This document shows positions 4,509 through 22,559 of a DNA stretch of 54,597 nt, piece after piece (positions within the stretch are counted from its first letter, which is position 1; each line of letters starts with the position of its first letter). The translations under genes and the position numbers were made by a program. This stretch comes from a virus (Duplodnaviria; Heunggongvirae; Uroviricota; Caudoviricetes): the IMG/VR virus record IMGVR_UViG_3300026097_000012, positions 72,953 through 127,549 of that record; one strand, written 5' to 3'. The notes below the pieces were generated by a model. It was given only the letters and a program-made list of their open reading frames with translations, was not told where the DNA came from and did not search any database.

Positions 4509-4532
4509 ACTATAACTTAAAACAAACAGATT

Positions 4533-4730
4533 ATGAATTGCGACAGATGTCACACAGAATCACCCCGCTTTACGAAAATGAGTTTCTTCAATATGGACAC
4601 AATATGTCCTGAGTGTGAAGCTAAGGAAAAAGCACATCCACAGTATGAGGCGGCGAGAAAGAAAGAAAGAGAAGAATGTTTAAAGGGTAATATGAATTAT
4701 CCTGGAATCGGAAAACCTGCTGACCTATGA
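4533..4730 (+). CDS. Zn-ribbon-like hypothetical protein
   Basis: CDRC..CPEC. Confidence 0.75.
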   Translation: MNCDRCHTESPRFTKMSFFNMDTICPECEAKEKAHPQYEAARKKEREECLKGNMNYPGIGKPADL

Positions 4731-5035
4731 TTAAGAGCAAAGACGAATTAAAGAGGAGACCTATTGAGATAGATCTAACGGGTCCAGATGGTAATGTATT
4801 CTATTTAATGGCTACAGCAAAGCGGTTATCGCGCCAGCTTTACGACTTCGTAACAGAAGAGCTTGAAAATGCTCGAGCAGTAGATGAATCATTAAAGCTG
4901 TTATATGACGGAGACTTTAAAACTCCTGAAAACATGGGAGACTGGATCGTAGAAGAAATGATGAAGTCTGATTACGAACATGCAGTTCAAGTTTTTGATA
5001 AATATTTTGGCGCAGTTGTAACACTGTACCGTTAA
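4727..5035 (+). CDS. conserved phage hypothetical protein
   Basis: IDLTGPDGNVFYLM motif; ATGA overlap. Confidence 0.75.
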   Translation: MIKSKDELKRRPIEIDLTGPDGNVFYLMATAKRLSRQLYDFVTEELENARAVDESLKLLYDGDFKTPENMGDWIVEEMMKSDYEHAVQVFDKYFGAVVTLYR

Positions 5036-5048
5036 CTACGGAGTAACT

Positions 5049-5306
5049 ATGGAAGAAGTAATAAACTTAATATCCGACCGAGACGAGATACTCGAGGACA
5101 AGGTGGCCGAGTTTCAGAAGAAACTAATTGACATACATCCTAAATTTAAAGTCGGACAGGTAATTCTTTTTTGGGGAGGATATAATAACGATATCCGATA
5201 CCGATCTGAAATAATTGGATTTAACGAGGACGGAGAAATCTACGTTATGTGGGATTGTTATTGGTTCCCTATTAGAGATGAAGAATCAAGAGAAATAGAA
5301 TTATAA
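5049..5306 (+). CDS. hypothetical protein
   Basis: ORF before terminator. Confidence 0.7.
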   Translation: MEEVINLISDRDEILEDKVAEFQKKLIDIHPKFKVGQVILFWGGYNNDIRYRSEIIGFNEDGEIYVMWDCYWFPIRDEESREIEL

Positions 5307-5329
5307 ACGGGTTTGTTTAAGTTAGATGG

Positions 5330-5352
5330 AACCTCAACTTCGGTTGGGGTTT
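5330..5352 (+). terminator. Intrinsic terminator
   Basis: AACCTCAAC-TTCG-GTTGGGGTT. Confidence 0.75.
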
Positions 5353-5361
5353 CGTCGTTTA

Positions 5362-5539
5362 GAGCGGTAAGCTTAGCGACGTGCCCGAGGAGGGTTGGCT
5401 CAGAAAGCTTTGACTACGGAGTTCACCGTGCACGCCGGGACCAGTGGGATCCCGGTACACAAGAGCACGGCTGGCCCTTAGAGAAATGCACAAAAATATT
5501 CTCAGGATTTTTTATAATGAAGAATAATTCTTATATTTA
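5362..5539 (+). promoter_or_regulatory. Dyad-decamer-dyad + promoter
   Basis: Dyads 5362-5401 and 5438-5477, ACTACGGAGT 5413; TATATTTA at 5532. Confidence 0.75.
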
Positions 5540-5561
5540 ACTATAACTTAAAACAAACACG

Positions 5562-5771
5562 ATGAGTAATTTTATAGATCACATCAAATTAGCAACAGAG
5601 AATATAGTTCTATGTAGTGGTATATGTTCTAAGAAAGAGCATTACGAGTACGCTGAGAAGATGGAAAAGATGCTTAAGCATCAGTTAAAAGAGGAGTTAA
5701 CTGAAATTGTAAATGATCACGAGATGATGGAAGAAAGACTTTGTGAATTTATTCAAAAACTAGGAGTATGA
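5562..5771 (+). CDS. hypothetical protein
   Basis: First ORF after promoter. Confidence 0.7.
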   Translation: MSNFIDHIKLATENIVLCSGICSKKEHYEYAEKMEKMLKHQLKEELTEIVNDHEMMEERLCEFIQKLGV

Positions 5772-5932
5772 AAAAGAAACCGACAATGACCAAAGCTCAA
5801 TTAACTCAGAGAGTTAATGAAGAAGCAAAGAGAATGCGAGAAGACATTAAAAGACAAGGAGGCAATCTTACCTTTGCTGAATGCAAGAAGGAGGCTCGTA
5901 AAGTATTCATGGAAGAATTCGAAATAGTTTAA
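5768..5932 (+). CDS. 54-aa basic hypothetical protein
   Basis: ATGA overlap with upstream gene. Confidence 0.55.
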   Translation: MKKKPTMTKAQLTQRVNEEAKRMREDIKRQGGNLTFAECKKEARKVFMEEFEIV

Positions 5933-6013
5933 GTCTAGGACACCCAATTCTCTTAGACATTTAATCTTACTTCAAAGAGATTATCTTATCATAGAGGGAC
6001 CCGAGTTAATCAC

Positions 6014-6044
6014 AAGAGGAATCTAAACAGGTTCCTCTTTTTTT
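6014..6044 (+). terminator. Intrinsic terminator
   Basis: AAGAGGAA..TTCCTCTT + T run. Confidence 0.75.
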
Positions 6045-6057
6045 ATCTCTACTTATC

Positions 6058-6209
6058 GAGCAAGTCGATAGGTTTCAAGAGAGAGGAGAGCTCGCTCGTC
6101 TCTGTTTGAGCCAGTGTGCTTTCGATCCTAACCTAGAGACCTCGACCTAGAGTATTTCAAAAATAAGTATAATTATATTTTAGGTTATCAATTATTATTC
6201 TTATATTTA
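6058..6209 (+). promoter_or_regulatory. Two tandem dyads + promoter
   Basis: 6058-6097 and 6108-6147; TATATTTA at 6202. Confidence 0.75.
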
Positions 6210-6232
6210 ATTATAACTTAAAACAAACAGAT

Positions 6233-6388
6233 ATGTATTCATTATATTGTAGCTACTACGACAAAGAGTTTAATTCCCTTGAGGAGCTAATTGAGGACGT
6301 GACCATCAATGGCATGGACCCAAACTATGAGGTGACCAGAGATGGCAAGGGTATTGGAGAGAACGCCATAGATTTTATTCAATTTTAA
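6233..6388 (+). CDS. 51-aa acidic hypothetical protein
   Basis: First ORF after promoter 6202. Confidence 0.6.
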   Translation: MYSLYCSYYDKEFNSLEELIEDVTINGMDPNYEVTRDGKGIGENAIDFIQF

Positions 6389-6398
6389 AAATAATATT

Positions 6399-6611
6399 AT
6401 GGATAAGCCAAAACTATACGTACTTATGTCTTATGATGAAGATGGTACCGACACATCTATATTCTTAGACAAAGATGAAGCGTTAGAAGAATTCGAAAGA
6501 GCAAGTGGAGACGACAAGGTCGTAGGAGAAGTAGAAGAATACAAATCCTTCGGACAAGGAGCATGGGGAGATTGGTATGGAATCAAAATAATTAAGAAAT
6601 CTGATGGTTAA
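6399..6611 (+). CDS. acidic hypothetical protein
   Basis: ORF in operon. Confidence 0.7.
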   Translation: MDKPKLYVLMSYDEDGTDTSIFLDKDEALEEFERASGDDKVVGEVEEYKSFGQGAWGDWYGIKIIKKSDG

Positions 6612-6855
6612 GTGGGATAAGAAAATAGAAGACAGGCACATGAAGGGAAATACTCCCTTCGGTGAGGTCTGGATCCGGTTTGACCGGGAAGGTAAAGCAA
6701 TCGGTTTATATACCTGTTTTGGCGATACTCAGAAATGGATTCCGGACGAAGAGTGGATGCAAGATCTCGAAGGAGCCCAGCTCAGATTAGAGGAACTTAC
6801 AGAAGATACCAAACGTTTACGTGATTGGGGTGAGGGACTACGGAGTAAAGATTAA
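6604..6855 (+). CDS. hypothetical protein
   Basis: ORF in operon. Confidence 0.65.
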   Translation: MVKWDKKIEDRHMKGNTPFGEVWIRFDREGKAIGLYTCFGDTQKWIPDEEWMQDLEGAQLRLEELTEDTKRLRDWGEGLRSKD

Positions 6856-6919
6856 ATTACATTATATTCTAAAACTGAGACCAGAATTACCTGTATAAGA
6901 AATAAATAATACTATAGAC

Positions 6920-7120
6920 ATGGAAAGCCAAATACATTCAATAATCGATCAATGGAAAGAAGAAACTGGTAATCAGAAGTCTATCTCGTCTGACTCGATT
7001 AAGGTTAAGTATGCAGACCGTGAGGTAGGGATATATACTATTTATCTTATGTTAAATCCTACAGTAAGGATTAAAGCATTGCTGAATGGCCCTGCTTGGA
7101 AAATCATAGAATTAAAATGA
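6920..7120 (+). CDS. hypothetical protein
   Basis: ORF in operon. Confidence 0.65.
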   Translation: MESQIHSIIDQWKEETGNQKSISSDSIKVKYADREVGIYTIYLMLNPTVRIKALLNGPAWKIIELK

Positions 7121-7410
7121 GACTTAACGAACCTTTTACTAAACTACTAACGTCAGTAGATGACCAGCTCGGAAGAGACGAAGAATCTATACACCTATTT
7201 GAATGGGTACTAGAAGAACACTATGAATCTAAAATTATAGAGAACATGGATTTTTTTCAAGAAAGGCCTGATCTTCGCTCAATTCAAAACGAACAAATGC
7301 TTCATGAATTAGATGTAATGGAAGCCTACTTCGTATCAAAGGAAGAGTATGAGAAATGCGCGTCAATCGTAAAGATTCGTTCTGATTTAAAACAAATTAT
7401 TTCTGCATAA
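7117..7410 (+). CDS. UVR-motif-containing protein (start reassigned to 7117)
   Basis: C-terminal EEYEKCASIVKIRSDL; ATGA overlap at 7117. Confidence 0.7.
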   Translation: MRLNEPFTKLLTSVDDQLGRDEESIHLFEWVLEEHYESKIIENMDFFQERPDLRSIQNEQMLHELDVMEAYFVSKEEYEKCASIVKIRSDLKQIISA

Positions 7411-7436
7411 TATTTTTTTATTCCAAATAAGTTTCT

Positions 7437-7444
7437 TATATTTA
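7437..7444 (+). promoter_or_regulatory. TATATTTA promoter
   Basis: Followed by TAACTTAAAACAAG leader; degenerate half-site TTCGTTC ends 7382 (55 bp upstream). Confidence 0.7.
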
Positions 7445-7466
7445 CTTTATAACTTAAAACAAGGCA

Positions 7467-7856
7467 ATGGCAAAAGGAACTAATGAATGGATAGGAGGTA
7501 GTTTCCATAACGTAACTATCACTGCCACCATAAACGATCTTATATTAGCATTAGGAGAACCACAGGTCTTTGATAATAGCGGAGAAGATAAAGTAAACGT
7601 TGAATGGGGTGCAGTCACTGAGGCAGGATTCCGTTTCACGATTTACGATTGGAAAGAATACAGAGTTTTAGATTTAGACGAACCTATTACTTTCCATATT
7701 GGAAGTACGAAAGGAGCAATTCAAGAATGGGAAGCAGAAGCTGAAGTAATTGCCGATATAGTAAAAATTAAAAAGAATGAAGAGATGCTTGAGTCAGGAT
7801 TAAGCGAAGAGGAATACGATGCTCTCTCTGAACTAGAAGAAATAAACAAAGAATGA
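7467..7856 (+). CDS. conserved phage hypothetical protein
   Basis: DKVNVEW..FTIYDWKEY motif. Confidence 0.75.
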   Translation: MAKGTNEWIGGSFHNVTITATINDLILALGEPQVFDNSGEDKVNVEWGAVTEAGFRFTIYDWKEYRVLDLDEPITFHIGSTKGAIQEWEAEAEVIADIVKIKKNEEMLESGLSEEEYDALSELEEINKE

Positions 7857-8125
7857 AAGATATAATAATTGAACGAATGTTAAAAGATACTAACAACGAA
7901 GGATTCCATATTCTGGACGAGTATGGATTACAAGCCTTCTTAGATCTTACGGCGACGAGTCATGATCCGATAGAAGGAATTAGGGATCTTAATAAAATGA
8001 AAAATTATTTTATTAGAGAAGAGGATTACCGTAAGTGCGCAAAGATACAAGACTGTATTAATGTCTTATGGGTCGATGGTCCTGAGAAACAAGGTCTAAA
8101 AAAAGAATTAGAAATATTAGTTTAA
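7853..8125 (+). CDS. UVR-motif-containing protein
   Basis: EEDYRKCAKIQDCI. Confidence 0.7.
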   Translation: MKDIIIERMLKDTNNEGFHILDEYGLQAFLDLTATSHDPIEGIRDLNKMKNYFIREEDYRKCAKIQDCINVLWVDGPEKQGLKKELEILV

Positions 8126-8146
8126 ATCCAGCTTGTTTAAGTTAGG

Positions 8147-8172
8147 AAAAGGTCGGAGAAATCCGACCTTTT
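8147..8172 (+). terminator. Intrinsic terminator
   Basis: AAAAGGTCGGA-GAAA-TCCGACCTTTT. Confidence 0.85.
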
Positions 8173-8189
8173 CTTTTTCCTGAGGATCT

Positions 8190-8292
8190 GAGCCAAGTAT
8201 GCCCGGATAATAAACGATCCCGTTGGCTCTAAACAAATTTGCAAAAAAGTTTAAGAAATATTATAATAAGTGGTATATTATTCTTATATTTA
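8190..8292 (+). promoter_or_regulatory. Dyad + promoter
   Basis: 8190-8229 (40 bp); TATATTTA at 8285. Confidence 0.8.
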
Positions 8293-8318
8293 TAGTATAA
8301 CTTAAAAACAAACAAGAT

Positions 8319-8573
8319 ATGGTAATGACACCGATTGACGCAGACACACTGCGAAGCAAATTGAATGAAGGCACAGTGCAATTCGCATTTAAGAAAAAAG
8401 ACGGGACCCTGCGAACTGCAGTGGGAACCACTAACTTGGATACGGTTCCCCTAGAGAGTCATCCATCAGGCGAAGGAGGAGAATCTTCTCGTGCATCAGT
8501 TCGATATTTTGACATGGGCAAGAACTCATGGAGATCATGTTCTGCTGACACTGAAATCTTTTTAGCAGATTAG
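8319..8573 (+). CDS. WYL_2/DUF2693-like SH3 beta-barrel protein
   Basis: VQFAFKKKDGTLRTAVGT..YFDMGKNSWRS. Confidence 0.75.
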   Translation: MVMTPIDADTLRSKLNEGTVQFAFKKKDGTLRTAVGTTNLDTVPLESHPSGEGGESSRASVRYFDMGKNSWRSCSADTEIFLAD

Positions 8574-8574
8574 A

Positions 8575-9294
8575 ATGTACGAAGAGATTTATAACCTATG
8601 TTCCGTAAAGAACAAGGGATCTGTTTTTCAAAACGGATCGGATAAGATTACTCCACGAGTAGAATGGATCTTGAACTTCCTAATGGATAACAAGATGCCA
8701 TTCATACTCGATGAGTTTCCTGTTAAAGACGGAACAGGTTATAATATTATCCTTACTGGAGAGTCAGGTAAATGGGTTACATGCCATCATGATATTGTAA
8801 ACCCTAAGTCTGATAATGCAAATGACAATTCATGTTCTATTATAAATGCTATCTCGTTAAAACAACTTGCTCCTCATATTAATGTAGCAATACTCGATGG
8901 AGAAGAGCCAGGTGGTCTAGGATCAAATCGCCTTTCCTCTCAAATGAAAGCGGGTGACTACGGAGTAATTGATTGGATTCTAAATCTAGAGCTAACAGGT
9001 ATAGGAGGTAAAGATTTTCTGATCTGTAACTCTAATATGGACAAGTCACTAAGTAAACGAGTAAGAGATCTCTTTATATGCGATATCATTGGAGTACCAT
9101 TTAACGACTCAGTTATATTTAGAAAGAACGGTTTTGATTCTATAGTTATTAACCCTCTTCCTAGAATGGAGAACGGAAAATTAGATATGAGTGTCCTATT
9201 TAGATGTCATTCAATGAGTGATTCAGTAGATAAGATCTCAATAGAAGATATGAAAGTATTTACAGAAGAAGTTTTACTTCCGATCGTAAGTTAA
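8575..9294 (+). CDS. M28-family Zn metallopeptidase
   Basis: HHD, NANDN, DGEE..GLGS, NLELTG, CHS..DS ligands. Confidence 0.8.
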   Translation: MYEEIYNLCSVKNKGSVFQNGSDKITPRVEWILNFLMDNKMPFILDEFPVKDGTGYNIILTGESGKWVTCHHDIVNPKSDNANDNSCSIINAISLKQLAPHINVAILDGEEPGGLGSNRLSSQMKAGDYGVIDWILNLELTGIGGKDFLICNSNMDKSLSKRVRDLFICDIIGVPFNDSVIFRKNGFDSIVINPLPRMENGKLDMSVLFRCHSMSDSVDKISIEDMKVFTEEVLLPIVS

Positions 9295-9314
9295 GGCGTT
9301 TGTTTAAGGTTAGA

Positions 9315-9343
9315 GATTCCCTCAACGAAAGTTGGGGGTTTCT
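9315..9343 (+). terminator. Intrinsic terminator
   Basis: CCCTCAAC-GAAA-GTTGGGG + T. Confidence 0.75.
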
Positions 9344-9356
9344 CGTTTTTGGAGGC

Positions 9357-9459
9357 GAGCTAACTTTACCCCTTGAATCCTTGACATCGGAGGGCTCGCC
9401 TCGCTCTAGACTTTATTTAAATCAAATGTGAAATATTTAATTTATTTTGCCTATATTTA
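9357..9459 (+). promoter_or_regulatory. Dyad + promoter
   Basis: 9357-9397; TATATTTA at 9452. Confidence 0.75.
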
Positions 9460-9484
9460 CTTATAACTTAAAACAAATAGTAAT

Positions 9485-9844
9485 ATGGAAGCAATATTCA
9501 ATAGACATCTTAAAGATTTTCATGCGGATTTTACAATAGAATTTGACGTGAAAAATCCACCTCTAGCAAACATATCAGAAGAAGCACATCAGTATGAATA
9601 TGAAACAGGAACTGTAGTAAATGAATTAGGAGATGAATTATTTAATAATCTTAACTATAAGTGGCTGAAAGATTGGAGTTTTGCCGGTCGAAGCAATGGC
9701 TGGTTTGTTTTGTTGTGCGAAGGAGATGAATCCAAAATACAAGCAAAAACACTCAGAAGGCTAGAAAGTCTTGTTAAAGACTACCTAAACAAATACAAAT
9801 TAGCATTGGAGCATGCTTATAATTCGTTAAAAGAAAATGGCTAA
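9485..9844 (+). CDS. hypothetical protein
   Basis: First ORF after promoter. Confidence 0.75.
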   Translation: MEAIFNRHLKDFHADFTIEFDVKNPPLANISEEAHQYEYETGTVVNELGDELFNNLNYKWLKDWSFAGRSNGWFVLLCEGDESKIQAKTLRRLESLVKDYLNKYKLALEHAYNSLKENG

Positions 9845-10022
9845 GAAAAAGAAATACACGATTACTAAAGAACAACAATTGAAGTTCGACCGCAAGGCGA
9901 GCCGCGAGGAAGAGCTTGATAAGAATGGAGGCTGGTGCGCGGTCCATAAAGTCCACAAGTCAGACAAGACCTACTGCCGAACGAAGAAGCACTCGAAGCG
10001 AGACGACGAGCTTGGCTCATAA
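9837..10022 (+). CDS. small basic hypothetical protein
   Basis: RKASREEE..HKVHKSDK; overlaps upstream stop. Confidence 0.7.
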   Translation: MAKKKKYTITKEQQLKFDRKASREEELDKNGGWCAVHKVHKSDKTYCRTKKHSKRDDELGS

Positions 10023-10081
10023 CTAATTCCAAAAATAAGTTCATAAAAGTGTTAAGTATTCAAAGTAAATGCTTATATTTA
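9979..10081 (+). promoter_or_regulatory. Dyad embedded in CDS + promoter
   Basis: GAACGAAG 9979..TTGGCTC 10018 (40 bp); TATATTTA at 10074. Confidence 0.75.
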
Positions 10082-10104
10082 CTTATAACTTAAAACAAAC
10101 ACAC

Positions 10105-10473
10105 ATGAAGCATCTATTTTTTGTAGCACAGGACGGCAACGCAGACGAGTTGTTTGCAATGATTGAGTCAGATCATTTCGACGATCTTGCACTAACTCAA
10201 CTTAAATCAGAATATGAGAATGCAGAGATTGATGATACAGAATTCTGCGAACAAGTACAAGGGTACCTTAAATCCAATATCGTTCTTTCTATCTTTGCGG
10301 TAGTGATGGTGGAAAGAGAAGATTCAGATAATCCAACTCTTAAAATTGTTAGAGCTGAGAACGAAGACGATGCTTACAACAGATTTGCGTCTATGATTGG
10401 TCATACCGGAAGATCATTGAACGAAGGAGAAGAGGAAGGAGAAATTGTAATTCTAATAAGAGAAGTTAAGTAA
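10105..10473 (+). CDS. acidic hypothetical protein (start reassigned to 10105)
   Basis: Track start 10069 overlaps the promoter. Confidence 0.75.
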   Translation: MKHLFFVAQDGNADELFAMIESDHFDDLALTQLKSEYENAEIDDTEFCEQVQGYLKSNIVLSIFAVVMVEREDSDNPTLKIVRAENEDDAYNRFASMIGHTGRSLNEGEEEGEIVILIREVK

Positions 10474-10490
10474 CCGTAAATTAACCAAGT

Positions 10491-10652
10491 ATGAAAAAGA
10501 AAATAATCCAAGTATTCGTTGTAATTTGTATGATTATATCTGCAGTGATACTACACGAATTAATATTCCTACTTACTAAATTTATTCCTTATCCAATTGT
10601 GTTAGGTATGCTCGGAGGATGGGGACTGACCTATCTATACTATAGAAAGTAG
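10491..10652 (+). CDS. 53-aa membrane protein
   Basis: Two hydrophobic segments. Confidence 0.55.
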   Translation: MKKKIIQVFVVICMIISAVILHELIFLLTKFIPYPIVLGMLGGWGLTYLYYRK

Positions 10653-10667
10653 TTTGTTTAAAGTTAA

Positions 10668-10695
10668 ATGAGACCCTGCTTCGGCGGGGTCTCAT
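10668..10695 (+). terminator. Terminator-like hairpin
   Basis: ATGAGACCCTGC-TTCG-GCGGGGTCTCAT. Confidence 0.8.
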
Positions 10696-10701
10696 TGTTT
10701 G

Positions 10702-10885
10702 GAGCCAATTGATCTACGTTCTTCAGACTCTTAATTGGCTCCTCCTATAATATGTTTACTACGGAGTAGTTCATTATACAGACGAGCGAAGCTAATCCGA
10801 TCGCATGTCTGCCGAAGTTCGCTCTAACTTATGTGCAAAATAAATGGACGTTTTATTTTTTATCCAATAAAGTTTTGTATATTTA
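10702..10885 (+). promoter_or_regulatory. Dyad-decamer-dyad + promoter
   Basis: 10702-10741 and 10784-10824, ACTACGGAGT 10758; TATATTTA at 10878. Confidence 0.8.
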
Positions 10886-10911
10886 CTATGTAACCAATTA
10901 ATTTCAAGTAT

Positions 10912-11325
10912 ATGAACAAAGAAGAGTTAGTAACCAAGTTTAAGAAGAGAGGTAGTAAGGACCTATCTAAGAAATTAGATAATCCAAAAACTACAGATTT
11001 GGAAAAGAAGGCAATCACTGAATTGCTCGTCAAGAGAGGAGTAATTAAGGAGGAGGCAAAGAAACCAGTTGCCACAAAAAAGAAAGCGACAAAGAAATCC
11101 CCAGCCAAAAAGAAATCGGCAAACGTGGATGTAATTGCTGACTTCCTAAAAGTAGGAGACGAGGCTAAAATCAAATCTAAGGCTAAGTCCACGTTGGGCC
11201 AAATGATCAATGCAAAGGTCGTGAAGATCTATGCATGTAATCGAACAGGCAAGAATTACGTGAGATTAAAGGCAGATGGTCACACGTACCACAAACGCTT
11301 AAATGCATTTGAACCTGCAGAGTAG
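10912..11325 (+). CDS. Lys-rich probable nucleic-acid-binding protein
   Basis: KKKATKKSPAKKK histone-H1-like linker. Confidence 0.7.
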   Translation: MNKEELVTKFKKRGSKDLSKKLDNPKTTDLEKKAITELLVKRGVIKEEAKKPVATKKKATKKSPAKKKSANVDVIADFLKVGDEAKIKSKAKSTLGQMINAKVVKIYACNRTGKNYVRLKADGHTYHKRLNAFEPAE

Positions 11326-11345
11326 GAATTAAATCCCTCGCATAG

Positions 11346-11372
11346 AAACCCTGGCTTCGGCTAGGGTTTTTT
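11346..11372 (+). terminator. Intrinsic terminator
   Basis: AAACCCTGGC-TTCG-GCTAGGGTTT. Confidence 0.8.
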
Positions 11373-11386
11373 CGTTTACTACGATA

Positions 11387-11489
11387 GAGCCAAGACATCT
11401 CGAAACAGAGGCGGGAGAGCTCGCTCATTGATTTCTTGCAAATGAAATGTCATTTTATTTTTTTAATCCATTGATATTATGTATATTTA
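11387..11489 (+). promoter_or_regulatory. Dyad + promoter
   Basis: 11387-11426; TATATTTA at 11482. Confidence 0.8.
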
Positions 11490-11528
11490 ACATGTAATTA
11501 ATTATTAATCAATTAAAAATTAAAGCGC

Positions 11529-11996
11529 ATGAAAAAACTAATTTTGTTATCAAGTCTTCTTCTTTTAGTAGGAGTAGCATTTTCATCACCATCAATTGAC
11601 ATAGAGTCAACTGATATTACAAGTGTTGATATTGTTCAATCATCGGTCACAAAAGTTCCGGAAGCATCGGTCCCAGTGTTTGATGGATTATTCCATCTAG
11701 TGGAAATCAAGATTTTATCTAGACATTTAGAATACATCACTGATACTGTCTATGATTTGGTCGAAGTCCACAAACCACATGATATATTTTTACGTGTACA
11801 GGTTGACTCCTCTATGTATAAAGACTATATTATACACGATATTGGAAATTTTGAAAATATAGATACCATTCGATATCTTGAGATATATGAGCAGGATGAA
11901 TGTAATCATGCCAATGTCGTACATATCAATTGGTTAAATAAATCGATAGTTGATCTTGTCTATGTACCAATTGACGATATAGAAAAGATTGAATAA
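11529..11996 (+). CDS. secreted hypothetical protein
   Basis: N-terminal signal peptide MKKLILLSSLLLLVGVAFS. Confidence 0.7.
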   Translation: MKKLILLSSLLLLVGVAFSSPSIDIESTDITSVDIVQSSVTKVPEASVPVFDGLFHLVEIKILSRHLEYITDTVYDLVEVHKPHDIFLRVQVDSSMYKDYIIHDIGNFENIDTIRYLEIYEQDECNHANVVHINWLNKSIVDLVYVPIDDIEKIE

Positions 11997-12015
11997 ACGG
12001 TTTACTAAATTTAAG

Positions 12016-12042
12016 AAAAACCCCGCATGGCGGGGTTTTTTT
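12016..12042 (+). terminator. Intrinsic terminator
   Basis: AAAAACCCCGC-ATG-GCGGGGTTTTT. Confidence 0.85.
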
Positions 12043-12057
12043 ATGCTCTGTTGTCTA

Positions 12058-12160: not shown

Positions 12161-12183
12161 CTTATAACTTAAAACAAAGGATT

Positions 12184-14341: not shown

Positions 14342-14367
14342 TAGTATAATATATAAAATGATAAAAC

Positions 14368-14907: not shown

Positions 14908-14925
14908 AAACTAAACGAACAAAAT

Positions 14926-15177
14926 ATGACAGGACAAGATGTTGATTCACTAATAAGATACGGAGCTACTGACCGAGTACGCAAACATATTAAAAAACTA
15001 GGTATGAAGTCTAGAATGCGTCTGCTTAGAGACTGTGTACCTAACGTTAATGCTACTACGGAGTCACTTAAATTCTTTAAAGAAAACTTCTCAAAGGAAA
15101 TAGGAGCTCTAATGATGGCGGAACAAGACATAGATAAAGCCGTGGCCTTATATAATGAGGCAAAAAAATTAAAGTAA
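14926..15177 (+). CDS. hypothetical protein
   Basis: ORF in operon. Confidence 0.7.
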   Translation: MTGQDVDSLIRYGATDRVRKHIKKLGMKSRMRLLRDCVPNVNATTESLKFFKENFSKEIGALMMAEQDIDKAVALYNEAKKLK

Positions 15178-15491
15178 TGAAAAATACTCTTACTTATTTC
15201 GATGAAATACTTCAAGCAGATTTTAAAATTCCTGCATTCGAAGAAGTAACTCCTTCTATTTTACGAGAAGAATACGATGATGAGGTTTATAGATCCATCT
15301 ATGCCTCGCTTGCAAGATTAGAAGTTAACCCTGATTGGGCTAACATTCCTTGTTTTTCTATGAATGGAGTAATTTTTGAAATAGACAGAGGAGACCACAT
15401 CGAACATTTAAATAATTGTTTAGACTATTTTACAAAGAGCGAAGAGTACGAGATCTGCTCCCACCTAGTTCGGCTCAAGAATACTTTATAA
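15177..15491 (+). CDS. UVR-motif-containing protein
   Basis: SEEYEICSHLVRLKNTL. Confidence 0.7.
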   Translation: MKNTLTYFDEILQADFKIPAFEEVTPSILREEYDDEVYRSIYASLARLEVNPDWANIPCFSMNGVIFEIDRGDHIEHLNNCLDYFTKSEEYEICSHLVRLKNTL

Positions 15492-15538
15492 ATTATTTCC
15501 CCTAGATTTTTTTAATCCAAATAAGTTTCTTATATTTA
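15437..15538 (+). promoter_or_regulatory. Dyad embedded in CDS + promoter
   Basis: GAGCGAAG 15437..TCGGCTC 15476 (40 bp); TATATTTA at 15531. Confidence 0.8.
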
Positions 15539-15556
15539 ACTATATAATTAAACAAC

Positions 15557-15868
15557 ATGGATAAAGAAAGATATAAATTAGTAGAAAGACAATGGGAAGG
15601 CTGGAATTTTCAGTCTGTTCAAGAAACTTCTAGAGATACTATGGTAAGTTACTATAGAGTAGAGGACAATAACGGAATCAGAGAAGGACTTGAAGTTTAC
15701 ACTGGAGAAAACTATGTAGTTGGATCCAAAAAGAGAAGCTATTCACGTCACTATCCAATCACAAACAAACATTCTATTTTAGAACTACCAGTAGATAGAA
15801 GAGAAAAGGTCGTTGAGATGCGAGCTGCTCTAAAAAGAATGTTAGGAAATAAACTTTTAAAGATATAA
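15557..15868 (+). CDS. hypothetical protein
   Basis: First ORF after promoter. Confidence 0.75.
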   Translation: MDKERYKLVERQWEGWNFQSVQETSRDTMVSYYRVEDNNGIREGLEVYTGENYVVGSKKRSYSRHYPITNKHSILELPVDRREKVVEMRAALKRMLGNKLLKI

Positions 15869-15870
15869 TT

Positions 15871-16074
15871 ATGGGACATAGAAGAAGAGGAGATAATACA
15901 ATTAGAGGATTTTTAACCTCTATCTTATATTTTGCCCTAATAATGGTTGTAATATACGTATTACTCGGATGGGCATATGCTAAAGAATCAGGAGAATCAT
16001 TTAACATTGTTTATGAATTTGGAAAGGCAGTTAAACTATTTTGGACTCATTTAAAAGATGGATGGAATAGTTAA
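15871..16074 (+). CDS. single-TM membrane protein
   Basis: Hydrophobic segment. Confidence 0.65.
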   Translation: MGHRRRGDNTIRGFLTSILYFALIMVVIYVLLGWAYAKESGESFNIVYEFGKAVKLFWTHLKDGWNS

Positions 16075-16138
16075 AACTTAACCTCTTCTTGTAGTATAAG
16101 ATAGTAATGTATGTTATTACTTATTTCCCCCTCACAAT

Positions 16139-16159
16139 GGCTCGCTTCGGCGGGCTTTT
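16139..16159 (+). terminator. Intrinsic terminator
   Basis: GGCTCGC-TTCG-GCGGGCT + T. Confidence 0.75.
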
Positions 16160-16175
16160 ATTGTTTCTAGAGGCG

Positions 16176-16278
16176 GAGCCAAGCTAATCCGATCGCATGC
16201 CAACAGGAGTTCGCTCCGTAATAAATAAAAAATAAATGTGAAATAATTTTTTTTATTCAAATTAATCGCTTATATTTA
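16176..16278 (+). promoter_or_regulatory. Dyad + promoter
   Basis: 16176-16216; TATATTTA at 16271. Confidence 0.8.
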
Positions 16279-16306
16279 CTATATAATCTTAAACAAATAA
16301 TATCCA

Positions 16307-16465
16307 ATGAAAAAAGGAAAATCTACAAAATCTTTAAACTGCAAATTCTGTGGTGATGAAGTAAAGAACGTAGGACACTATACGGTTAAAGTAACTTGCT
16401 GGAAATGTGTTAACCTATCAATGCAAACTACCGTTCCACTTGCCGATGAAGGGGACGATGACTAA
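16307..16465 (+). CDS. 52-aa Zn-ribbon protein
   Basis: CKFC..CWKC; first ORF after promoter. Confidence 0.6.
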   Translation: MKKGKSTKSLNCKFCGDEVKNVGHYTVKVTCWKCVNLSMQTTVPLADEGDDD

Positions 16466-16511
16466 TAAATGATCTAAAAATAAATTACTTAAAAACAAAC
16501 TAAAAAGTACT

Positions 16512-17240
16512 ATGAAAAATTACAAGCAAAAATCAGAGAGTTTAGATAGATATTTCAAATCTATCCAAGACCTCAACCCATTAGCTAAATCCGAAGAAAT
16601 CGAATTAGCGAAAAAAGCAAAAGCTGGAGATACTCGAGCTATGAACAAGCTAGTTGAGCACAACTTAAAAATTGTGGTAACAATAGCTAATAAGAACGTA
16701 GGTCGTGGAATCGATGTGGACGACTTGATCCAACAAGGAAACTTAGGATTATTCGAAGCGGCTCAACGCTTCGATCCTGAAGCAGGTGTTAGATTCTCTA
16801 CATTCGCAGGAACTAGAGTCCTAAAGATGATGAATCAATTAATTGACACGTGTGGGAGAGTCGTACGAATCCCCGTAAACCAGGAATATAAAAGATATCT
16901 TGCTTTGAAAAAAGGTGAAGAGGTTGAAAACCTTAATCCTGTAAAGATTGATGACTTTGTTCAAGATGACAAAGGTAAGTCTAAAGCAGATTCTGGAATA
17001 CTATCGGTGGGGCCATCGATTGAAGAAGAGCACAACATTGAAGACTTCAAAGTTCGTACGACAACGCTTCTATCCGGTCTAAAAGAACGAGACAGAAAGA
17101 TTATAAAGCTTTACTTTGGAATCGACTGTCCTGATGCTTTGCCTACTAAGGAAATCGCGGAAGAGGTAAACTTAACTCAAATCAGAGTATGTCAGATTAT
17201 CAACTCTGCGAAGAAGCAACTTCAATTAGCCATCCAGTAA
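16512..17240 (+). CDS. RNA polymerase sigma factor, RpoD/sigma-70 family
   Basis: Region 1.2 (LDRYF..I), region 2 (DLIQQGNLGLFEAAQRFDP..RFSTFA), region 4 HTH (EIAEEVNLTQIRVCQI). Confidence 0.92.
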   Translation: MKNYKQKSESLDRYFKSIQDLNPLAKSEEIELAKKAKAGDTRAMNKLVEHNLKIVVTIANKNVGRGIDVDDLIQQGNLGLFEAAQRFDPEAGVRFSTFAGTRVLKMMNQLIDTCGRVVRIPVNQEYKRYLALKKGEEVENLNPVKIDDFVQDDKGKSKADSGILSVGPSIEEEHNIEDFKVRTTTLLSGLKERDRKIIKLYFGIDCPDALPTKEIAEEVNLTQIRVCQIINSAKKQLQLAIQ

Positions 17241-17250
17241 ATCATAGATC

Positions 17251-17526
17251 ATGAGAGAGAAAGTATTAATATTCGACGGGAAGGACTTACATGAAATTGG
17301 CGCTGAATACTTCTTCCAACATCCGGTTATAAGAGACCTGAAGAAAGATGATGTATTACATATATACCAACACACTATGTTTCTCAATTATTCAGCAGAA
17401 CAAAATGAGGAGGATAAAATCAAAATGGAAAAGGGTTCCAATATCCTAGAACAAATGGTTTTAGATATGTACGGCAAAAAGGAAGGTCAACCTCATATTG
17501 ATCGAGTAAATTACATGATTACATGA
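17251..17526 (+). CDS. hypothetical protein
   Basis: ORF in operon. Confidence 0.7.
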   Translation: MREKVLIFDGKDLHEIGAEYFFQHPVIRDLKKDDVLHIYQHTMFLNYSAEQNEEDKIKMEKGSNILEQMVLDMYGKKEGQPHIDRVNYMIT

Positions 17527-17981
17527 AAAAGCTATTAGCAATATCTATCCTCGGAATACTGTGTTACTACGGAGTAACGTATTATAACTACATGAACAAT
17601 GGAGTTACGTATGTTGATCCTAACTTAGAGACCTTGGTCGAAGAGTGGAAGTCTGAAGTGGAAGAGCACGGCATCGACCTGAAAGATAGGTATCATAGAA
17701 TCCGAAGGATAGAGATTGTTAGTGACTACGGAGTAAAGAACCTGGCAGGTCAATGTAACTACACAACAAGAGAGATAGGAATAGGTAAAGAACAAGTATT
17801 AAAAGGAAGGTATACTACAATGACAGTACTTTGGCACGAGCTCGGACATTTTGTATTCGAACTCGAGCATCAAGATAGAATCTCTATCATGAATTCCGAA
17901 ACCTTAAGTGAAGAGTATTACAGAAAGCATTGGGAAATACTGAAAGTCAATTACATAAAACAAATCAAAGATGGAATATAG
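17523..17981 (+). CDS. membrane-anchored zincin (matrixin-like) metallopeptidase
   Basis: N-terminal TM; HELGHFVFELEH..IM. Confidence 0.75.
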   Translation: MKKLLAISILGILCYYGVTYYNYMNNGVTYVDPNLETLVEEWKSEVEEHGIDLKDRYHRIRRIEIVSDYGVKNLAGQCNYTTREIGIGKEQVLKGRYTTMTVLWHELGHFVFELEHQDRISIMNSETLSEEYYRKHWEILKVNYIKQIKDGI

Positions 17982-18282
17982 TTATAACAGCGAAGAGATA
18001 CTAAAGAAGTTAGAAGATCTAAAGAACCGAGATGTAGAAGCATTTACCGATTTAGTATTGAAAGCTTTCCGTATCGCGCCAGACCATATTCTTGAAGACC
18101 CACATCCTTCGGCCAATAAGATTAGAGCTTTGAAAGCTATGTTAGAATATTTAGAGACGACTGAACGATATGAAGACTGTGCTTTTATAAAAGGAATCAT
18201 GGATAACATAGAAACCAAAAAGGAAGACATTACTCTATGTGGAGTGTGTGGAGGAGATGCCTCAATTTGCGACGGATGTTAA
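17971..18282 (+). CDS. UVR-motif-containing protein
   Basis: TERYEDCAFIKGIMDNI; C-terminal CGVC..CDGC. Confidence 0.7.
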   Translation: MEYSYNSEEILKKLEDLKNRDVEAFTDLVLKAFRIAPDHILEDPHPSANKIRALKAMLEYLETTERYEDCAFIKGIMDNIETKKEDITLCGVCGGDASICDGC

Positions 18283-18283
18283 T

Positions 18284-18547
18284 ATGAATACCAAGAAAGA
18301 GACATATCTTATTATATCTGAAGCGACAGACCCTCGTCTGTCGTTCGGTCAGGCTATTAGAGCTACAGTTGCAGTAGCAAGTAATTTTAGAAAGGCATAC
18401 GACTTGGCTCTAAGCATGGGCGATATTACTGATCCGAGCCTCGGATATCGCGCCGCCCTTGAACGAACTAACGGAGAGCTGGCATTCCAATTGGAAGAAA
18501 AAGACGGCTCAAAGAAAGTTACAATTGCTCTCATAAAAAAGTACTGA
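18284..18547 (+). CDS. hypothetical protein (start reassigned to 18284)
   Basis: ATG 1 nt after upstream stop. Confidence 0.65.
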   Translation: MNTKKETYLIISEATDPRLSFGQAIRATVAVASNFRKAYDLALSMGDITDPSLGYRAALERTNGELAFQLEEKDGSKKVTIALIKKY

Positions 18548-18575
18548 TTAATTTTTTTAACCCAAGAATTTTACG

Positions 18576-18583
18576 TATATTTA
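18576..18583 (+). promoter_or_regulatory. TATATTTA promoter
   Basis: T-tract about 17 bp upstream; A-rich leader. Confidence 0.65.
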
Positions 18584-18611
18584 TATTATAAACCAATAAA
18601 CAGCTAATATT

Positions 18612-18860
18612 ATGAAAAAGATAATTTTAACAATAGCATTAATGGTAATAGCAATCTCATGTGATATGTCGACTGAGCCTGATGTATCATACGATGAGAT
18701 TCATAATTGCCTACCAATTCCTAGTGATGTGCCACATGTGTATAAGAGTGGTTCCCCTATCGAATGGGATTGTGAAATGAATTCGTATTACAAAAACGGA
18801 GATCTCATTTTACATTACGATAGCGATAGCAACCTCATCATGATTGAAAAGATCTGGTAA
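18612..18860 (+). CDS. putative lipoprotein
   Basis: Signal peptide ending AISC. Confidence 0.7.
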   Translation: MKKIILTIALMVIAISCDMSTEPDVSYDEIHNCLPIPSDVPHVYKSGSPIEWDCEMNSYYKNGDLILHYDSDSNLIMIEKIW

Positions 18861-19042
18861 TGGATAAGGTAGAACGAATACTTAATCTGATATCTGAGAA
18901 ATCGAGAGGATTACAGGAAGAACTGGACTCAATGTCTCCTATCTCTTTAAATGAAGATGCGAAGGCGGAGTTATTTACTCAAATTTCAACACTGGATGAA
19001 TTATACAATGAGGTAAAACTAATACAGAAACAAGATGATTAA
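18860..19042 (+). CDS. coiled-coil hypothetical protein
   Basis: TAATG coupling. Confidence 0.65.
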   Translation: MDKVERILNLISEKSRGLQEELDSMSPISLNEDAKAELFTQISTLDELYNEVKLIQKQDD

Positions 19043-19376
19043 ATTTATAAAGACATACTTTAAAGAAAAGGCGGAATCTAACCTGATCCAAGAGCAAGAA
19101 GCCAAGGATAAGGCAAAAGCTAATGCTGCTCGAAAGAAGAAAACCTTTGTAAACGAAATCAAAGCTCTTAGACTTATAGCAATTAATAATGCAAGGTATA
19201 TAAGAGCAAGTATTAACACCTTAAACGGATCAGTGAATCATGCTAAAGGATCAAGTGCAGCGGAGACCAAAAAAAAGAGAGCTGTTCTTCGTGAAAGATT
19301 AGAATGGCTCAAAAGTAAGAAGGACGAAGAGGAAGTAATGGTAGATTACTATAACTCTCTTTTAGGAAAAAATTAA
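19035..19376 (+). CDS. basic coiled-coil hypothetical protein
   Basis: ORF before terminator. Confidence 0.7.
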   Translation: MIKFIKTYFKEKAESNLIQEQEAKDKAKANAARKKKTFVNEIKALRLIAINNARYIRASINTLNGSVNHAKGSSAAETKKKRAVLRERLEWLKSKKDEEEVMVDYYNSLLGKN

Positions 19377-19401
19377 AGGAAATCATAGTTTAGTTTGTTT
19401 A

Positions 19402-19425
19402 GACCCTGCTTCGGCGGGGTTTTTT
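19402..19425 (+). terminator. Intrinsic terminator
   Basis: GACCCTGC-TTCG-GCGGGGTT + T. Confidence 0.8.
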
Positions 19426-19439
19426 GTCTCGGTAACTAG

Positions 19440-19592
19440 GAGCCAAGCTCAGAAATCACGTTAGCCTTGACACTCGCTCTGGATCTTGGAGCCAGTTACT
19501 ATAGGCATGCAAGACGTCGGCGTTGGCTCCCGATAAATGTTGAAAATTGTTGGGTAAATGTCGAAAGAATCCCAACATTATTAGTATATTTA
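19440..19592 (+). promoter_or_regulatory. Two tandem dyads + promoter
   Basis: 19440-19479 and 19489-19529; TATATTTA at 19585. Confidence 0.8.
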
Positions 19593-19615
19593 TAATAACC
19601 TTAATATAAAACAAA

Positions 19616-20065
19616 ATGAAAAAACCCATATTCATATTACGATTAGGAATCGAGACAATAGTAGAAATAGACAAAGTATCAGTAGGTCATTTACAGGAGG
19701 AACTTGAAGACATTGCAGGATGTTCTCTTCCATTCGGTATATTATCTATCATTAATACTGATCTGTCCCCTAAAGAGCTCAAGGATTTATACGTTCAAGC
19801 AGCTGAAGAACTAGGAGACCATGCTCCAGTTGTAGTGTGGGATCCTTCTAGTAAGGATGCAACGTTTGACCTAAGAGATTTTCCCCAAGTAAAAGACATG
19901 ATAGATGCCTGGGAAGCGCATTATGATAAGGACCTTATTCCTCAGAAAAATGATATGTGCAACATGACCCTAGAAGAGCTTATCGACAAAGTCGGCAGAA
20001 CGGGCCGGGATTCGCTAACTCCTCTGGAGTTTGCACGACTAGAATTTTTATCAAAAAACTACTAG
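19616..20065 (+). CDS. hypothetical protein with DUF6576-like C-terminal tail
   Basis: LIDKVGRTGRDSLTPLE. Confidence 0.65.
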   Translation: MKKPIFILRLGIETIVEIDKVSVGHLQEELEDIAGCSLPFGILSIINTDLSPKELKDLYVQAAEELGDHAPVVVWDPSSKDATFDLRDFPQVKDMIDAWEAHYDKDLIPQKNDMCNMTLEELIDKVGRTGRDSLTPLEFARLEFLSKNY

Positions 20066-20091
20066 AATTTTTTTAACCCAAATTAAATTCT

Positions 20092-20099
20092 TATATTTA
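20092..20099 (+). promoter_or_regulatory. TATATTTA promoter
   Basis: T-tract upstream; leader TATCTTAATTAATAACTT. Confidence 0.7.
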
Positions 20100-20136
20100 C
20101 ATATCTTAATTAATAACTTATAAAATAATAAACAAC

Positions 20137-21279
20137 ATGATTGAATTAAAAGGATCTAAAAAGGAACAATCGGTAAGAAACTGGTTTAATAAAAAGCATA
20201 ATGGAGTTGTGCCTAACTCAAAGGTGATTGACCTATTTAAAGTATTCGAGGTCGAAGTACCTGGAATTTCTTATGGCTGTCTAAACGGTACCATGAAAAA
20301 GATCGTGGCAGAAGGTCACGTTGACATGTCAGCTCCACAAAGTAAAGGTGGGACTACGGAGTCCACTACTCCAGTTGAGCCAGTAGAGGCAGAAATTGTA
20401 ACAGTGGAAGACATGGATTTTCCTGACTTCGGTCTACATAGAACCGGTAAAGAAATCGATCATCTATTCTCAGATCATGAGGAAGGTGGAGGTCAATACG
20501 GCGGTACGGTAACCATTATAATTGGAGAGTCAGGAGTAGGGAAGTCTACCTTATTATTAGACGCTCTTGCTTCAATACAAAATGTAAACCCTGAAGCTAA
20601 GGTATTATATGTATCTAGTGAGATGACGAAAAATGATATCGGATTCTACTACAAAAAAACTCCGGCAATTGGAAAGGTACCGACCCTTCTCTTAATGAGC
20701 CATGTAAAGGACGGAAGCATGGATCAGGTAATTCAAGACGAGTTCAATAAGGACTATGACATTATCTTATTAGACTCTTACCAAGATGTTGTTGTGAAAC
20801 TGAAAGAGGTTAAGGGATGGAAATCTACTTACGCTGAGTCTTGGTTAACTAACATCATGATCGATGCGGCAGAGAATAATGGTGCTGCGATCTGGGCAAT
20901 TCAACACATGACTAAAGGAGGTCAGTATGTAGGGTCAACTTACCTAAAGCACGCAACTACAGCCATGCTTGAGATCATGTTCGATGAGGCTGGACAGAGA
21001 TACGTAGAGTTCTCAAAGAACAGAAGAGGTGGATCAGCTGTTGGTAATAGACTTTACTTTAGACTGATCGACGGTGATGTAGTGTACGATGCAAATCGAT
21101 TTAAAGAAACTAAGGAGCTCAAAGAAATGGAGGACAACGAGTCTATACGTCAAACTGATCTCTCTAAAAAGTTCGAAGAGATATTTGTATTTGGAGCTAA
21201 TGAAGCGTCTAAGGACGAGGAATCAGACGAAGGCGCCAACAAGATAGAGCTAGAAATAGTTGAACCTTCTGAAGAATAG
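20137..21279 (+). CDS. RadA/Sms-like RecA-superfamily ATPase
   Basis: Walker A GESGVGKST, LYVSSE, Walker B IILLDS, QHMTK..G...LKH, SKNRRG. Confidence 0.8.
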   Translation: MIELKGSKKEQSVRNWFNKKHNGVVPNSKVIDLFKVFEVEVPGISYGCLNGTMKKIVAEGHVDMSAPQSKGGTTESTTPVEPVEAEIVTVEDMDFPDFGLHRTGKEIDHLFSDHEEGGGQYGGTVTIIIGESGVGKSTLLLDALASIQNVNPEAKVLYVSSEMTKNDIGFYYKKTPAIGKVPTLLLMSHVKDGSMDQVIQDEFNKDYDIILLDSYQDVVVKLKEVKGWKSTYAESWLTNIMIDAAENNGAAIWAIQHMTKGGQYVGSTYLKHATTAMLEIMFDEAGQRYVEFSKNRRGGSAVGNRLYFRLIDGDVVYDANRFKETKELKEMEDNESIRQTDLSKKFEEIFVFGANEASKDEESDEGANKIELEIVEPSEE

Positions 21280-21344
21280 TTGAAATTATAAAACCAAATT
21301 GAGTATAATAGATATAACCTTATAAAAACAAATCAAATATTATT

Positions 21345-22535
21345 ATGGGAAAACGAGAAGTAACGGACGCACAGTTCCAAGAAATTAAAAACAAAGTCGG
21401 CCAAGCTGAGTCGGCTGTAAAAAGAGTACCTATATCTGCGATCTCCGTAGATCATGAGACTCTTAGACGAGGAAGAATCCTCGTTGGTGGTCAGCCGGTT
21501 AAAGTAAGTTCAGGCTTTTTCTCAAAGCTCGGACAAATGCTAAAGATCTCTACTTCTCTTACGAGAAAGATGATTGAGAAAGGAGACACGCAGATTGCGG
21601 CTGCTCTTATTAATGGTCTTAAGGACTATTCAGTTAAGAACAAAAAGGACAACGACGTAATGTTAATTGCAAACGTTAACTCTAAAGAAATCGTTGACAT
21701 TTGTACTCCTAATAGATATAAGAGAGTTACGAATGATACTTTGTTCGATGTAACAGAACGCATCTTGAACGACAACTCTTCTCTTATCTTAGAGACAGTG
21801 GACTTCAATCCGAATACCGGTAAAGCATCAATTAACTTTCTTAATCAGGAAGAGGTTGGATTTGCACAGGCAGGTAAAGATGAGTTCTTTAAATTCGGGT
21901 TCTCTCTTATTCAAACGAACAAAGATACCATTGTGGAATCTTACAATCAACGTTTGATCTGTACTAATGGACTCCGTACTTCACTAGGTGGAGGGGTTAT
22001 TGGGGGAACTTCAAACAAGGGAATGAGTTTCGACGATAAGTTCAGACTAGGCGGAACCTCAACTGAGGATATTCGAATCTTCTTGAACAAAATCGAAGAC
22101 ATGAAGAAAGCTAACTTCGTACCTGGTACATTTGAAGGAGCTATCAACCGTGCAGTAGGAACTAAAGCTTCGTACCTTGAAGTTGAAAAAGCCTGGAAAG
22201 CTGCACATGCCAAAGTAGAGGATATTAATCCTGATATGCGAAAGCAATATCAAGCTGCGATGGCAAGAGACTTCTTCCATGCTTATGGAAACACAATGAA
22301 TCGAATTAAGAACAAAGGAACTGATCCATTGGGTCTTAATGAAAAGCAAAAGTCATTCATTAAAACTGACATGTCGATCTGGGATGTAGTTAATTCAATG
22401 ACATTCCTAGGTTCAAATAACTCAGGGTTCGAATTGGCAAACAAGCACGAACTAAAGTATTCAGCTGGGGAGCTGTTCGCGAAAGGCACAAAGGAAGGTT
22501 ACGACCTGGAATTTGCGCAATACGCAAACCTATAA
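21345..22535 (+). CDS. DUF932-like protein
   Basis: GFSL..RLICTNGL motif. Confidence 0.6.
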   Translation: MGKREVTDAQFQEIKNKVGQAESAVKRVPISAISVDHETLRRGRILVGGQPVKVSSGFFSKLGQMLKISTSLTRKMIEKGDTQIAAALINGLKDYSVKNKKDNDVMLIANVNSKEIVDICTPNRYKRVTNDTLFDVTERILNDNSSLILETVDFNPNTGKASINFLNQEEVGFAQAGKDEFFKFGFSLIQTNKDTIVESYNQRLICTNGLRTSLGGGVIGGTSNKGMSFDDKFRLGGTSTEDIRIFLNKIEDMKKANFVPGTFEGAINRAVGTKASYLEVEKAWKAAHAKVEDINPDMRKQYQAAMARDFFHAYGNTMNRIKNKGTDPLGLNEKQKSFIKTDMSIWDVVNSMTFLGSNNSGFELANKHELKYSAGELFAKGTKEGYDLEFAQYANL

Positions 22536-22559
22536 AATAGGTTGTTTAATTAAGGTAGA

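Follow-up and report, generated by a model that had tools for sequence, protein, structure and literature searches.

Candidate end-to-end RNA helices closing early operons of a phage with an inferred Bacteroidota host

Few long-range interactions within bacterial mRNAs have been reported, and one paper names three (PMC12697547). In the Bacillus subtilis hbs mRNA, a helix of approximately 14 base pairs (bp) joins the 5' untranslated region (UTR) to a complement just upstream of the terminator, restricting RNase Y cleavage and stabilising primary transcripts (PMC5737220). In the Fst/par toxin mRNA, an upstream intramolecular helix conceals the extreme 5' end and adds stability (PMC7472228), while the hok and Helicobacter pylori aapA messages join their two ends only once transcription has finished and the RNA is full-length (PMC6733600). 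Finally, in Staphylococcus aureus icaR (PMC3868564) and in the so-called distant anti-Shine-Dalgarno sequences (PMC12697547), base-pairing links the initiation region to a 3' sequence within the one message. Here we analyse a stretch of 54,597 nucleotides (nt) from a virus of the Caudoviricetes, positions 72,953 to 127,549 of record IMGVR_UViG_3300026097_000012, which we call the window. In five of its transcription units, the first bases of the predicted mRNA match, over 13-20 bp, the stretch between the last stop codon and the terminator, which makes each of these messages a candidate for closure by an RNA helix.

How does this arrangement compare with the systems above? The hbs mRNA is a single-gene cellular message with a long structured leader and an internal 5' strand, whereas the phage helix would run from +1 of a short unstructured leader, spans whole operons, is shared by nested promoters and recurs in at least 5 units per genome. 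The Fst/par RNA is a toxin message of 230 nt that comes with an antisense antitoxin and whose Shine-Dalgarno sequence lies under a separate hairpin, and none of these was seen in the phage units. In hok and aapA, metastable 5' hairpins keep the nascent RNA silent and 3' trimming activates it; the phage leaders are too short and too A-rich for such hairpins, and therefore translation of the nascent message would be open. Both icaR and the distant anti-Shine-Dalgarno sequences target the Shine-Dalgarno sequence, whereas the phage leaders have none and the conserved phage case mostly spares the initiation region; an element of the icaR type was rejected, the leaders being A-rich and devoid of its target. 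A type I toxin mRNA was rejected as well, since the units hold 2-3 genes, including an ATPase, a WYL_2 protein and a peptidase; the sole small hydrophobic open reading frame (ORF) in the helix units is that of 53 amino acids (aa) at 10491. What the phage units do display are the sequence-level features of bacterial 5'/3'-UTR interactions, namely complementarity, compensatory change, tolerance of G-U pairs and bounds set by the transcript ends. Judged by its sequence, the phage helix is a form of this known interaction, the new aspects being the +1 start, the operon span, the nested promoters and the recurrence in the early region. A literature search, in which subscription journals were thinly covered, returned no paper on this layout in phages.

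The window, from a large uncultured aquatic phage, forms the end of a 127.5-kilobase (kb) virus record that is about half complete; proteins identical to the record's own are found on contigs of up to 284 kb, and no cultured close relative was found. Between 1.5 and 22.6 kb, the window carries an array of short cassettes on the + strand. The promoter box TATATTTA occurs in 18 copies in AT-rich settings, all at 1499-20090 and none elsewhere in the 127.5-kb record; on the minus strand of the region, where an antisense antitoxin promoter was sought as a TATATTTA-type box in an AT-rich setting, and as that type only, none was found. The box represents a variant form of TAHHTTTG, the Bacteroidota element located 4-5 nt upstream of the start site (PMC6847099), and the +1 positions given here are predictions placed from the box-to-start spacing in that work. 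The leaders of the array are A-rich and without a Shine-Dalgarno sequence, and those that take part in a helix are unstructured and 20-38 nt long.

A sequence-only reading of the window had proposed six end-to-end pairs, and all six are present where it placed them. Against shuffled controls, five are strong (shuffle p <=0.009) and the sixth, 16288-16298 with 19393-19403, is weak (p 0.12). The five reach -12.9 (helix A), -12.4 (B), -11.2 (C), -13.8 (D) and -15.7 to -17.1 kcal/mol (F), energies matched by just 0.08-1.2% of background 34-mers, so that complementarity between the two UTRs exceeds chance. The features are as follows, with positions relative to the AUG where these are given.

4501..4508, +, promoter box TATATTTA of unit A; predicted +1 at 4513-4514
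4513..4527, +, helix A 5' strand, in the leader, -20 to -6 from AUG 4533
4533..5306, +, unit A, three ORFs: 65-aa zinc-ribbon-like (weak hits only), 102 aa, 85 aa
5311..5324, +, helix A 3' strand
5328..5354, +, unit A terminator hairpin, predicted
7437..7444, +, unit B promoter box; terminator common to the upstream promoter at 6200; predicted +1 at 7449-7450
7450..7463, +, helix B 5' strand, ACAAG variant, -17 to -4 from AUG 7467
7467..8125, +, unit B, two ORFs of 129 aa and 90 aa, no family
8132..8144, +, helix B 3' strand, CTTG variant
8145..8178, +, unit B terminator
8285..8292, +, unit C promoter box
8298..8313, +, helix C 5' strand, -21 to -6 from AUG 8319
8319..9294, +, unit C genes: WYL_2 (Sm-like, PF10902) and peptidase M28
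9298..9312, +, helix C 3' strand, retained in relative L128
9315..9348, +, unit C terminator
10074..10081, +, unit D promoter box; the upstream promoter at 9450 uses the same terminator
10086..10100, +, helix D 5' strand, -19 to -5 from AUG 10105
10105..10652, +, unit D, two ORFs: 122 aa; 53 aa, hydrophobic
10652..10666, +, helix D 3' strand
10667..10698, +, unit D terminator
16289..16298, +, sigma-factor operon leader; weak, non-significant candidate for pairing with the 19393 element
18597..18607, +, alternative 5' strand for the 19393 element, part of the leader that follows the nearer promoter (18576-18583)
19390..19403, +, partial 3' element, weak, at the terminator 19401-19426
19585..19615, +, promoter box and leader of the gene for a 149-aa protein, reading into the ATPase operon
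20092..20099, +, unit F promoter box; predicted +1 at 20104-20105
20102..20121, +, helix F 5' strand, -35 to -16 from AUG 20137
20137..21279, +, RadA/RecA-like ATPase gene, 380 aa, under the RadA cut-off
21301..21344, +, promoter GAGTATAAT, internal to the operon, with the leader for the DUF932-like gene
21345..22535, +, conserved 396-aa protein, DUF932-like by fold (TM score 0.54, weak); no match in a fold search of the PDB
22537..22557, +, helix F 3' strand
22558..22586, +, unit F terminator

Helix F consists, as had been claimed, of 17 Watson-Crick pairs, 3 G-U pairs and one bulge; a bulge at a fixed place was rejected as a rule, relatives having perfect helices. When the common leader is compared with the surrounding 22 kb, four sites pair with it at -9.5 kcal/mol or better, and three of the four lie directly before a terminator, in a zone that makes up 3% of the region scanned. 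In full-length folding, the end-to-end helix has a mean probability of 0.83-0.92 in the five strong units and of 0.02-0.30 in seven units without the element. The 3' UTRs of the units with a helix are 20-30 nt long and the operons spanned measure 0.6-2.4 kb. As for the sixth pair, its energy is -7.5 kcal/mol, no better than with the nearer 18574 leader, and the 19393 element is not present in orthologous units. Rfam gave no match at the gathering score in window 1-26000. At 9683-9720, inside a 119-aa ORF at 9485, a hairpin precedes a U-rich run that could likewise pair with the common leader (-11.0 kcal/mol); this is possibly a chance match or an internal pause.

Strong evidence comes from orthologues of the operon of unit F. 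Approximately 75 loci with this operon of ATPase and DUF932-like genes were collected, and 39 non-redundant ones with both ends were analysed. The helix is found in 35 of these 39 (-10.5 to -25 kcal/mol), the 3' partner following the leader across related phages. Own pairs average -15.0 kcal/mol and non-cognate ones -9.2 kcal/mol, the own mean being reached in 0 of 100,000 permutations. What is more, there are at least seven versions of the helix, namely TATCTTAAT, CCCTAAAA, TAACCAAT (that of L025 and L026), ATCAAAAC, GTCAAAC, GTCTAAC and ATCAAAT, each with its complement after the stop codon, and they fall on separate branches of the protein tree; the helix is kept in phages down to 45% protein identity. 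Down to 32% identity, it is this conserved gene pair that ends the cassette array in every relative. In L030:424-1186, the ATPase match is separated from the DUF932-like gene by about 760 bases, as compared with 30-100 in other loci, and the 3' end of that locus bears a short palindrome.

Compensatory change thus maintains pairing in the ATPase operon, and one two-sided change does so in unit B. Namely, the match of ACAAG with CTTG noticed in the window proves to be a true two-sided change, the orthologous unit of the close relative L128 having ACAAAC and GTTTG. In this relative, presence and absence of the element agree with the window unit by unit, even where the last gene is another one, and the element also occurs in the WYL_2 units of G003 and G004.

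The sequence-only reading had preferred RNA pairing to DNA inverted repeats, and the orthologue covariation, the excess of G-U pairs and the start at +1 support this. Among internal transition mismatches, G-U accounts for 17 contexts and A-C for 5 (symmetric alignment; p 0.017, the contexts being partly dependent). For two promoter classes, the frequency of pairing lies between 0.88 and 1.0 over positions +1 to +10, as against 0.12-0.69 over -10 to -1; the high values at +1 to +10 are partly due to the choice of helix register, whereas the fall at +1 is not. In a simple loop model with the interior fully unfolded, net closure still comes to -3.8 to -8.8 kcal/mol. Because of the covariation, the +1 start, the preference for G-U over A-C and the match of nested leaders to one 3' element, we regard an intramolecular RNA helix, acting in cis and kept by selection, as very probably real.

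Does each 3' element recognise its own leader only? Within the window, only the pair 20102/22537 is clearly partner-specific. The other elements fit 13-16 of the 19 leaders there about equally well, and for the four small-cassette elements the own leader ranks anywhere from 1st to 11th among the 19. At least 11 window leaders are nearly identical, and therefore the small-cassette elements are not specific to their own. In particular, 5311-5324 is perfectly complementary to the leader at 2368, which belongs to a unit without an element. As to nested promoters, the leader of the upstream promoter 9450 also pairs with the helix D 3' element (-11.5 kcal/mol), and three nested leaders pair with 22537-22557, at -11.8 (19585..19615), -17.1 (unit F) and -11.0 kcal/mol (21301..21344). 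In relatives, the second, DUF932-like gene has a promoter of its own, with a leader complementary to the shared 3' element, and in 40 kb of G002 and 80 kb of G005 the GTCAAAC leader is confined to two nested promoters that share a 3' end. Copying from promoter to promoter could account for part of this match. A second promoter class, RGTAYWWT, lies upstream of the DUF932-like gene and, in some relatives, also of the ATPase gene.

From the promoter type, TATATTTA resembling TAHHTTTG, and from the A-rich leaders without Shine-Dalgarno sequences, we infer a Bacteroidota host. A pattern scan of genomes returned a single, unrelated locus and a sigma-factor scan none. There was no enrichment of end pairing in 300 kb of a Persicobacter replicon (23 units, p 0.21) or in 100 kb of Cellulophaga phage phi4:1 (6-12 units, p 0.41), these being small, crude tests in which the positive control itself reached only p 0.017.

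What might such a helix do? We suggest, at a probability of roughly 0.5, that its main function is to stabilise the mRNA. Namely, the 3' partner being transcribed last, the nascent leader would stay free; at the terminator, the U-rich stretch past the last stop codon would pair with the first 10-20 bases of the transcript, beside the terminator hairpin. The helix would then bury the 5' end and both single-stranded A/U-rich ends, which are targets of RNase Y and of RNase E/G-type endonucleases, and messages from selected early promoters would live longer. No local 5' hairpin would be needed, which would impede initiation in a host not using Shine-Dalgarno sequences. Tested Bacteroidota have RNase Y and RNase E/G and lack a 5' exonuclease (PMC10234816), and BsRppH requires at least 2 unpaired 5' bases (PMC3997798). 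The hbs and Fst helices, which stabilise their messages, serve as precedents, the former equalling the phage helices in size and in its 3' position. Burial of the first bases is the feature common to all helix cases. In the ATPase operon, a median of 14.5 nt, and at least 12 in 28 of 32 loci, are left free before the AUG, so that the adenines at -12, -6 and -3, which drive initiation in Flavobacterium (PMC6847099), are mostly open, a point for protection and against silencing. The small-cassette helices reach to within 4-6 nt of the AUG and would also cover the -12/-13 and -6 adenines, probably reducing initiation on the first gene once the message is complete. Leader length and helix length show a correlation that is not established (rho 0.35, p 0.05).

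Several points weigh against end protection or against the evidence behind it. The start sites are predictions, and the host comes from promoter and leader type only. The operon loci are related, and p-values overstate their independence. Locus L044 and the relatives at 32-35% identity have the operon and not the helix. In the small cassettes, conservation is highest in the AAACAAAC/GTTTGTTT core, which lies over the initiation region, and the leaders of L127 and L130 have an uncompensated change close to the 5' end; both observations fit repression equally well. Moreover, when the ribosome binding site of a B. subtilis message pairs with a distant sequence, the effect is repression and faster decay (PMC12697547).

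The sequence-only reading had offered end protection, a translation timer and an RNase III stem as functions. The first fits all units, the second the small cassettes and less so the ATPase operon, and the third is disfavoured. In the timer, a Bacteroidota counterpart of the distant anti-Shine-Dalgarno sequence, the first gene would be translated only while the message is nascent, and the finished mRNA would be silenced and perhaps degraded faster, as with icaR, hok and aapA. This is the main rival because the small-cassette helices end so close to the AUG. They span -21 to -4, including the adenines that drive Flavobacterium initiation (PMC6847099), the core over the initiation region is best preserved in L127, L128 and L130, and pairing at a distant binding site does repress in B. 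subtilis (PMC12697547) and in S. aureus icaR (PMC3868564). Yet in the best-conserved case, the ATPase operon, the helix stops at least 12 bases before the AUG in 28 of 32, and the constant anchor is +1 rather than the AUG; we rate the timer as distinctly less likely than stabilisation.

A closed-loop coupling has also to be weighed, in which the ribosome finishing the last gene would melt the AUG-proximal half of the helix and restart on the first, or in which initiation on the first gene would depend on translation of the last. The 3' strand often starts 0-2 bases past the stop codon and, the geometry being antiparallel, the part nearest the stop codon pairs with the part of the leader nearest the AUG. 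However, the spacing from element to stop codon is no more constant than that from element to terminator (standard deviations of 4.6 and 4.1 nt), and anchoring of the element to the stop codon was not supported by these figures. To our knowledge, there is no bacterial precedent, and we think this coupling quite improbable; the broader notion that large Bacteroidota phages use a general, sequence-free device for closing mRNAs, in which any selected operon would receive a 3' complement of its own first bases as a self-made cap combined with ribosome feedback to the first gene, we consider improbable.

Could the 3' ends, or small RNAs cut from them, instead act in trans and jointly shut down many early-mRNA leaders? 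The promiscuity of the small-cassette elements, the exact complement to the leader at 2368 and the fact that the L127 and L130 elements still fit the common leader and not their own drifted one are all what such antisense action predicts. On the other hand, the ATPase-operon match is private to its own leaders, ACAAG/CTTG tracks its own leader, and cis pairing predicted at 0.83-0.92 would occupy the element, which makes action in trans hard to credit, if somewhat less so for the small cassettes. Equally, the helix could be a processing stem for RNase III or another enzyme, stacked on the terminator and cut so that both ends are lost, or a scaffold that joins the ends for ligation. RNase III usually needs roughly two helical turns, and the contiguous cores here range from 8 to 19 bp, mostly 10-13, rather than having a constant length of about two turns. 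Helices of 18-20 bp do adjoin the terminator stem in the window's clade, and the icaR pairing creates an RNase III substrate (PMC3868564), but most orthologous cores have 8-12 bp and lie 4-12 nt from that stem, and since many are so short we hold processing to be most unlikely. A search of the record, about half a genome, for an RNA ligase family gave no result to weigh, as the family matched no control. Finally, although inverted repeats do bracket gene cassettes within a shuffled early region, DNA-level repeats, whether they bound cassettes that move or invert or form paired protein sites, can hardly be entertained, given that the versions share no sequence, that the G-U bias lies on the coding strand, that the boundary falls at +1 and that, at every locus shown, promoter, operon and terminator stand in the same relative orientation; terminal inverted repeats of invertible or transposable DNA were rejected, the sequence being fully rewritten between orthologues and the orientation constant.

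Some further features of the region deserve mention. There are two phage sigma-70-type factors, at window 16512-17240 and at G000:C1:48150-49052. GC-rich, mostly non-coding stretches with repeats lie at window 230-1450, the outer start, and at 22600-24700, where the early arms meet; the spacers between terminators and promoters are GC-rich too, and the words GAGCC/GGCTC and GCTCGCTC recur. All 16 copies of the decamer ACTACGGAGT in the 127.5-kb record, where 0.16 would be expected, fall within window 5035-30184 and on the + strand; they are spread over genes and non-coding DNA and over the two early arms that converge there. In relatives, its reverse complement is found on the coding strand, often within terminator loops. 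The + strand ORF of 1121 aa at window 41652-45017 belongs to no PHROG or NCBIfam family. A nicotinamide phosphoribosyltransferase gene lies at window 50065-51798, and salvage of nicotinamide adenine dinucleotide by this enzyme is a known phage counter to defences that deplete it.

The long-range mRNA interactions reported in bacteria are all in cellular Firmicutes genes or toxin messages. In the phage, pairing appears to be selected over the 2.4 kb of a two-gene operon and to serve a selected set of early units. It would amount to a modular control of mRNA lifetime, or of first-gene output, in a phylum without Shine-Dalgarno initiation. The natural sets of compensatory variants would allow one to test whether the ends of a translated bacterial operon meet, and the element may serve as a design part for expression in Bacteroidota.

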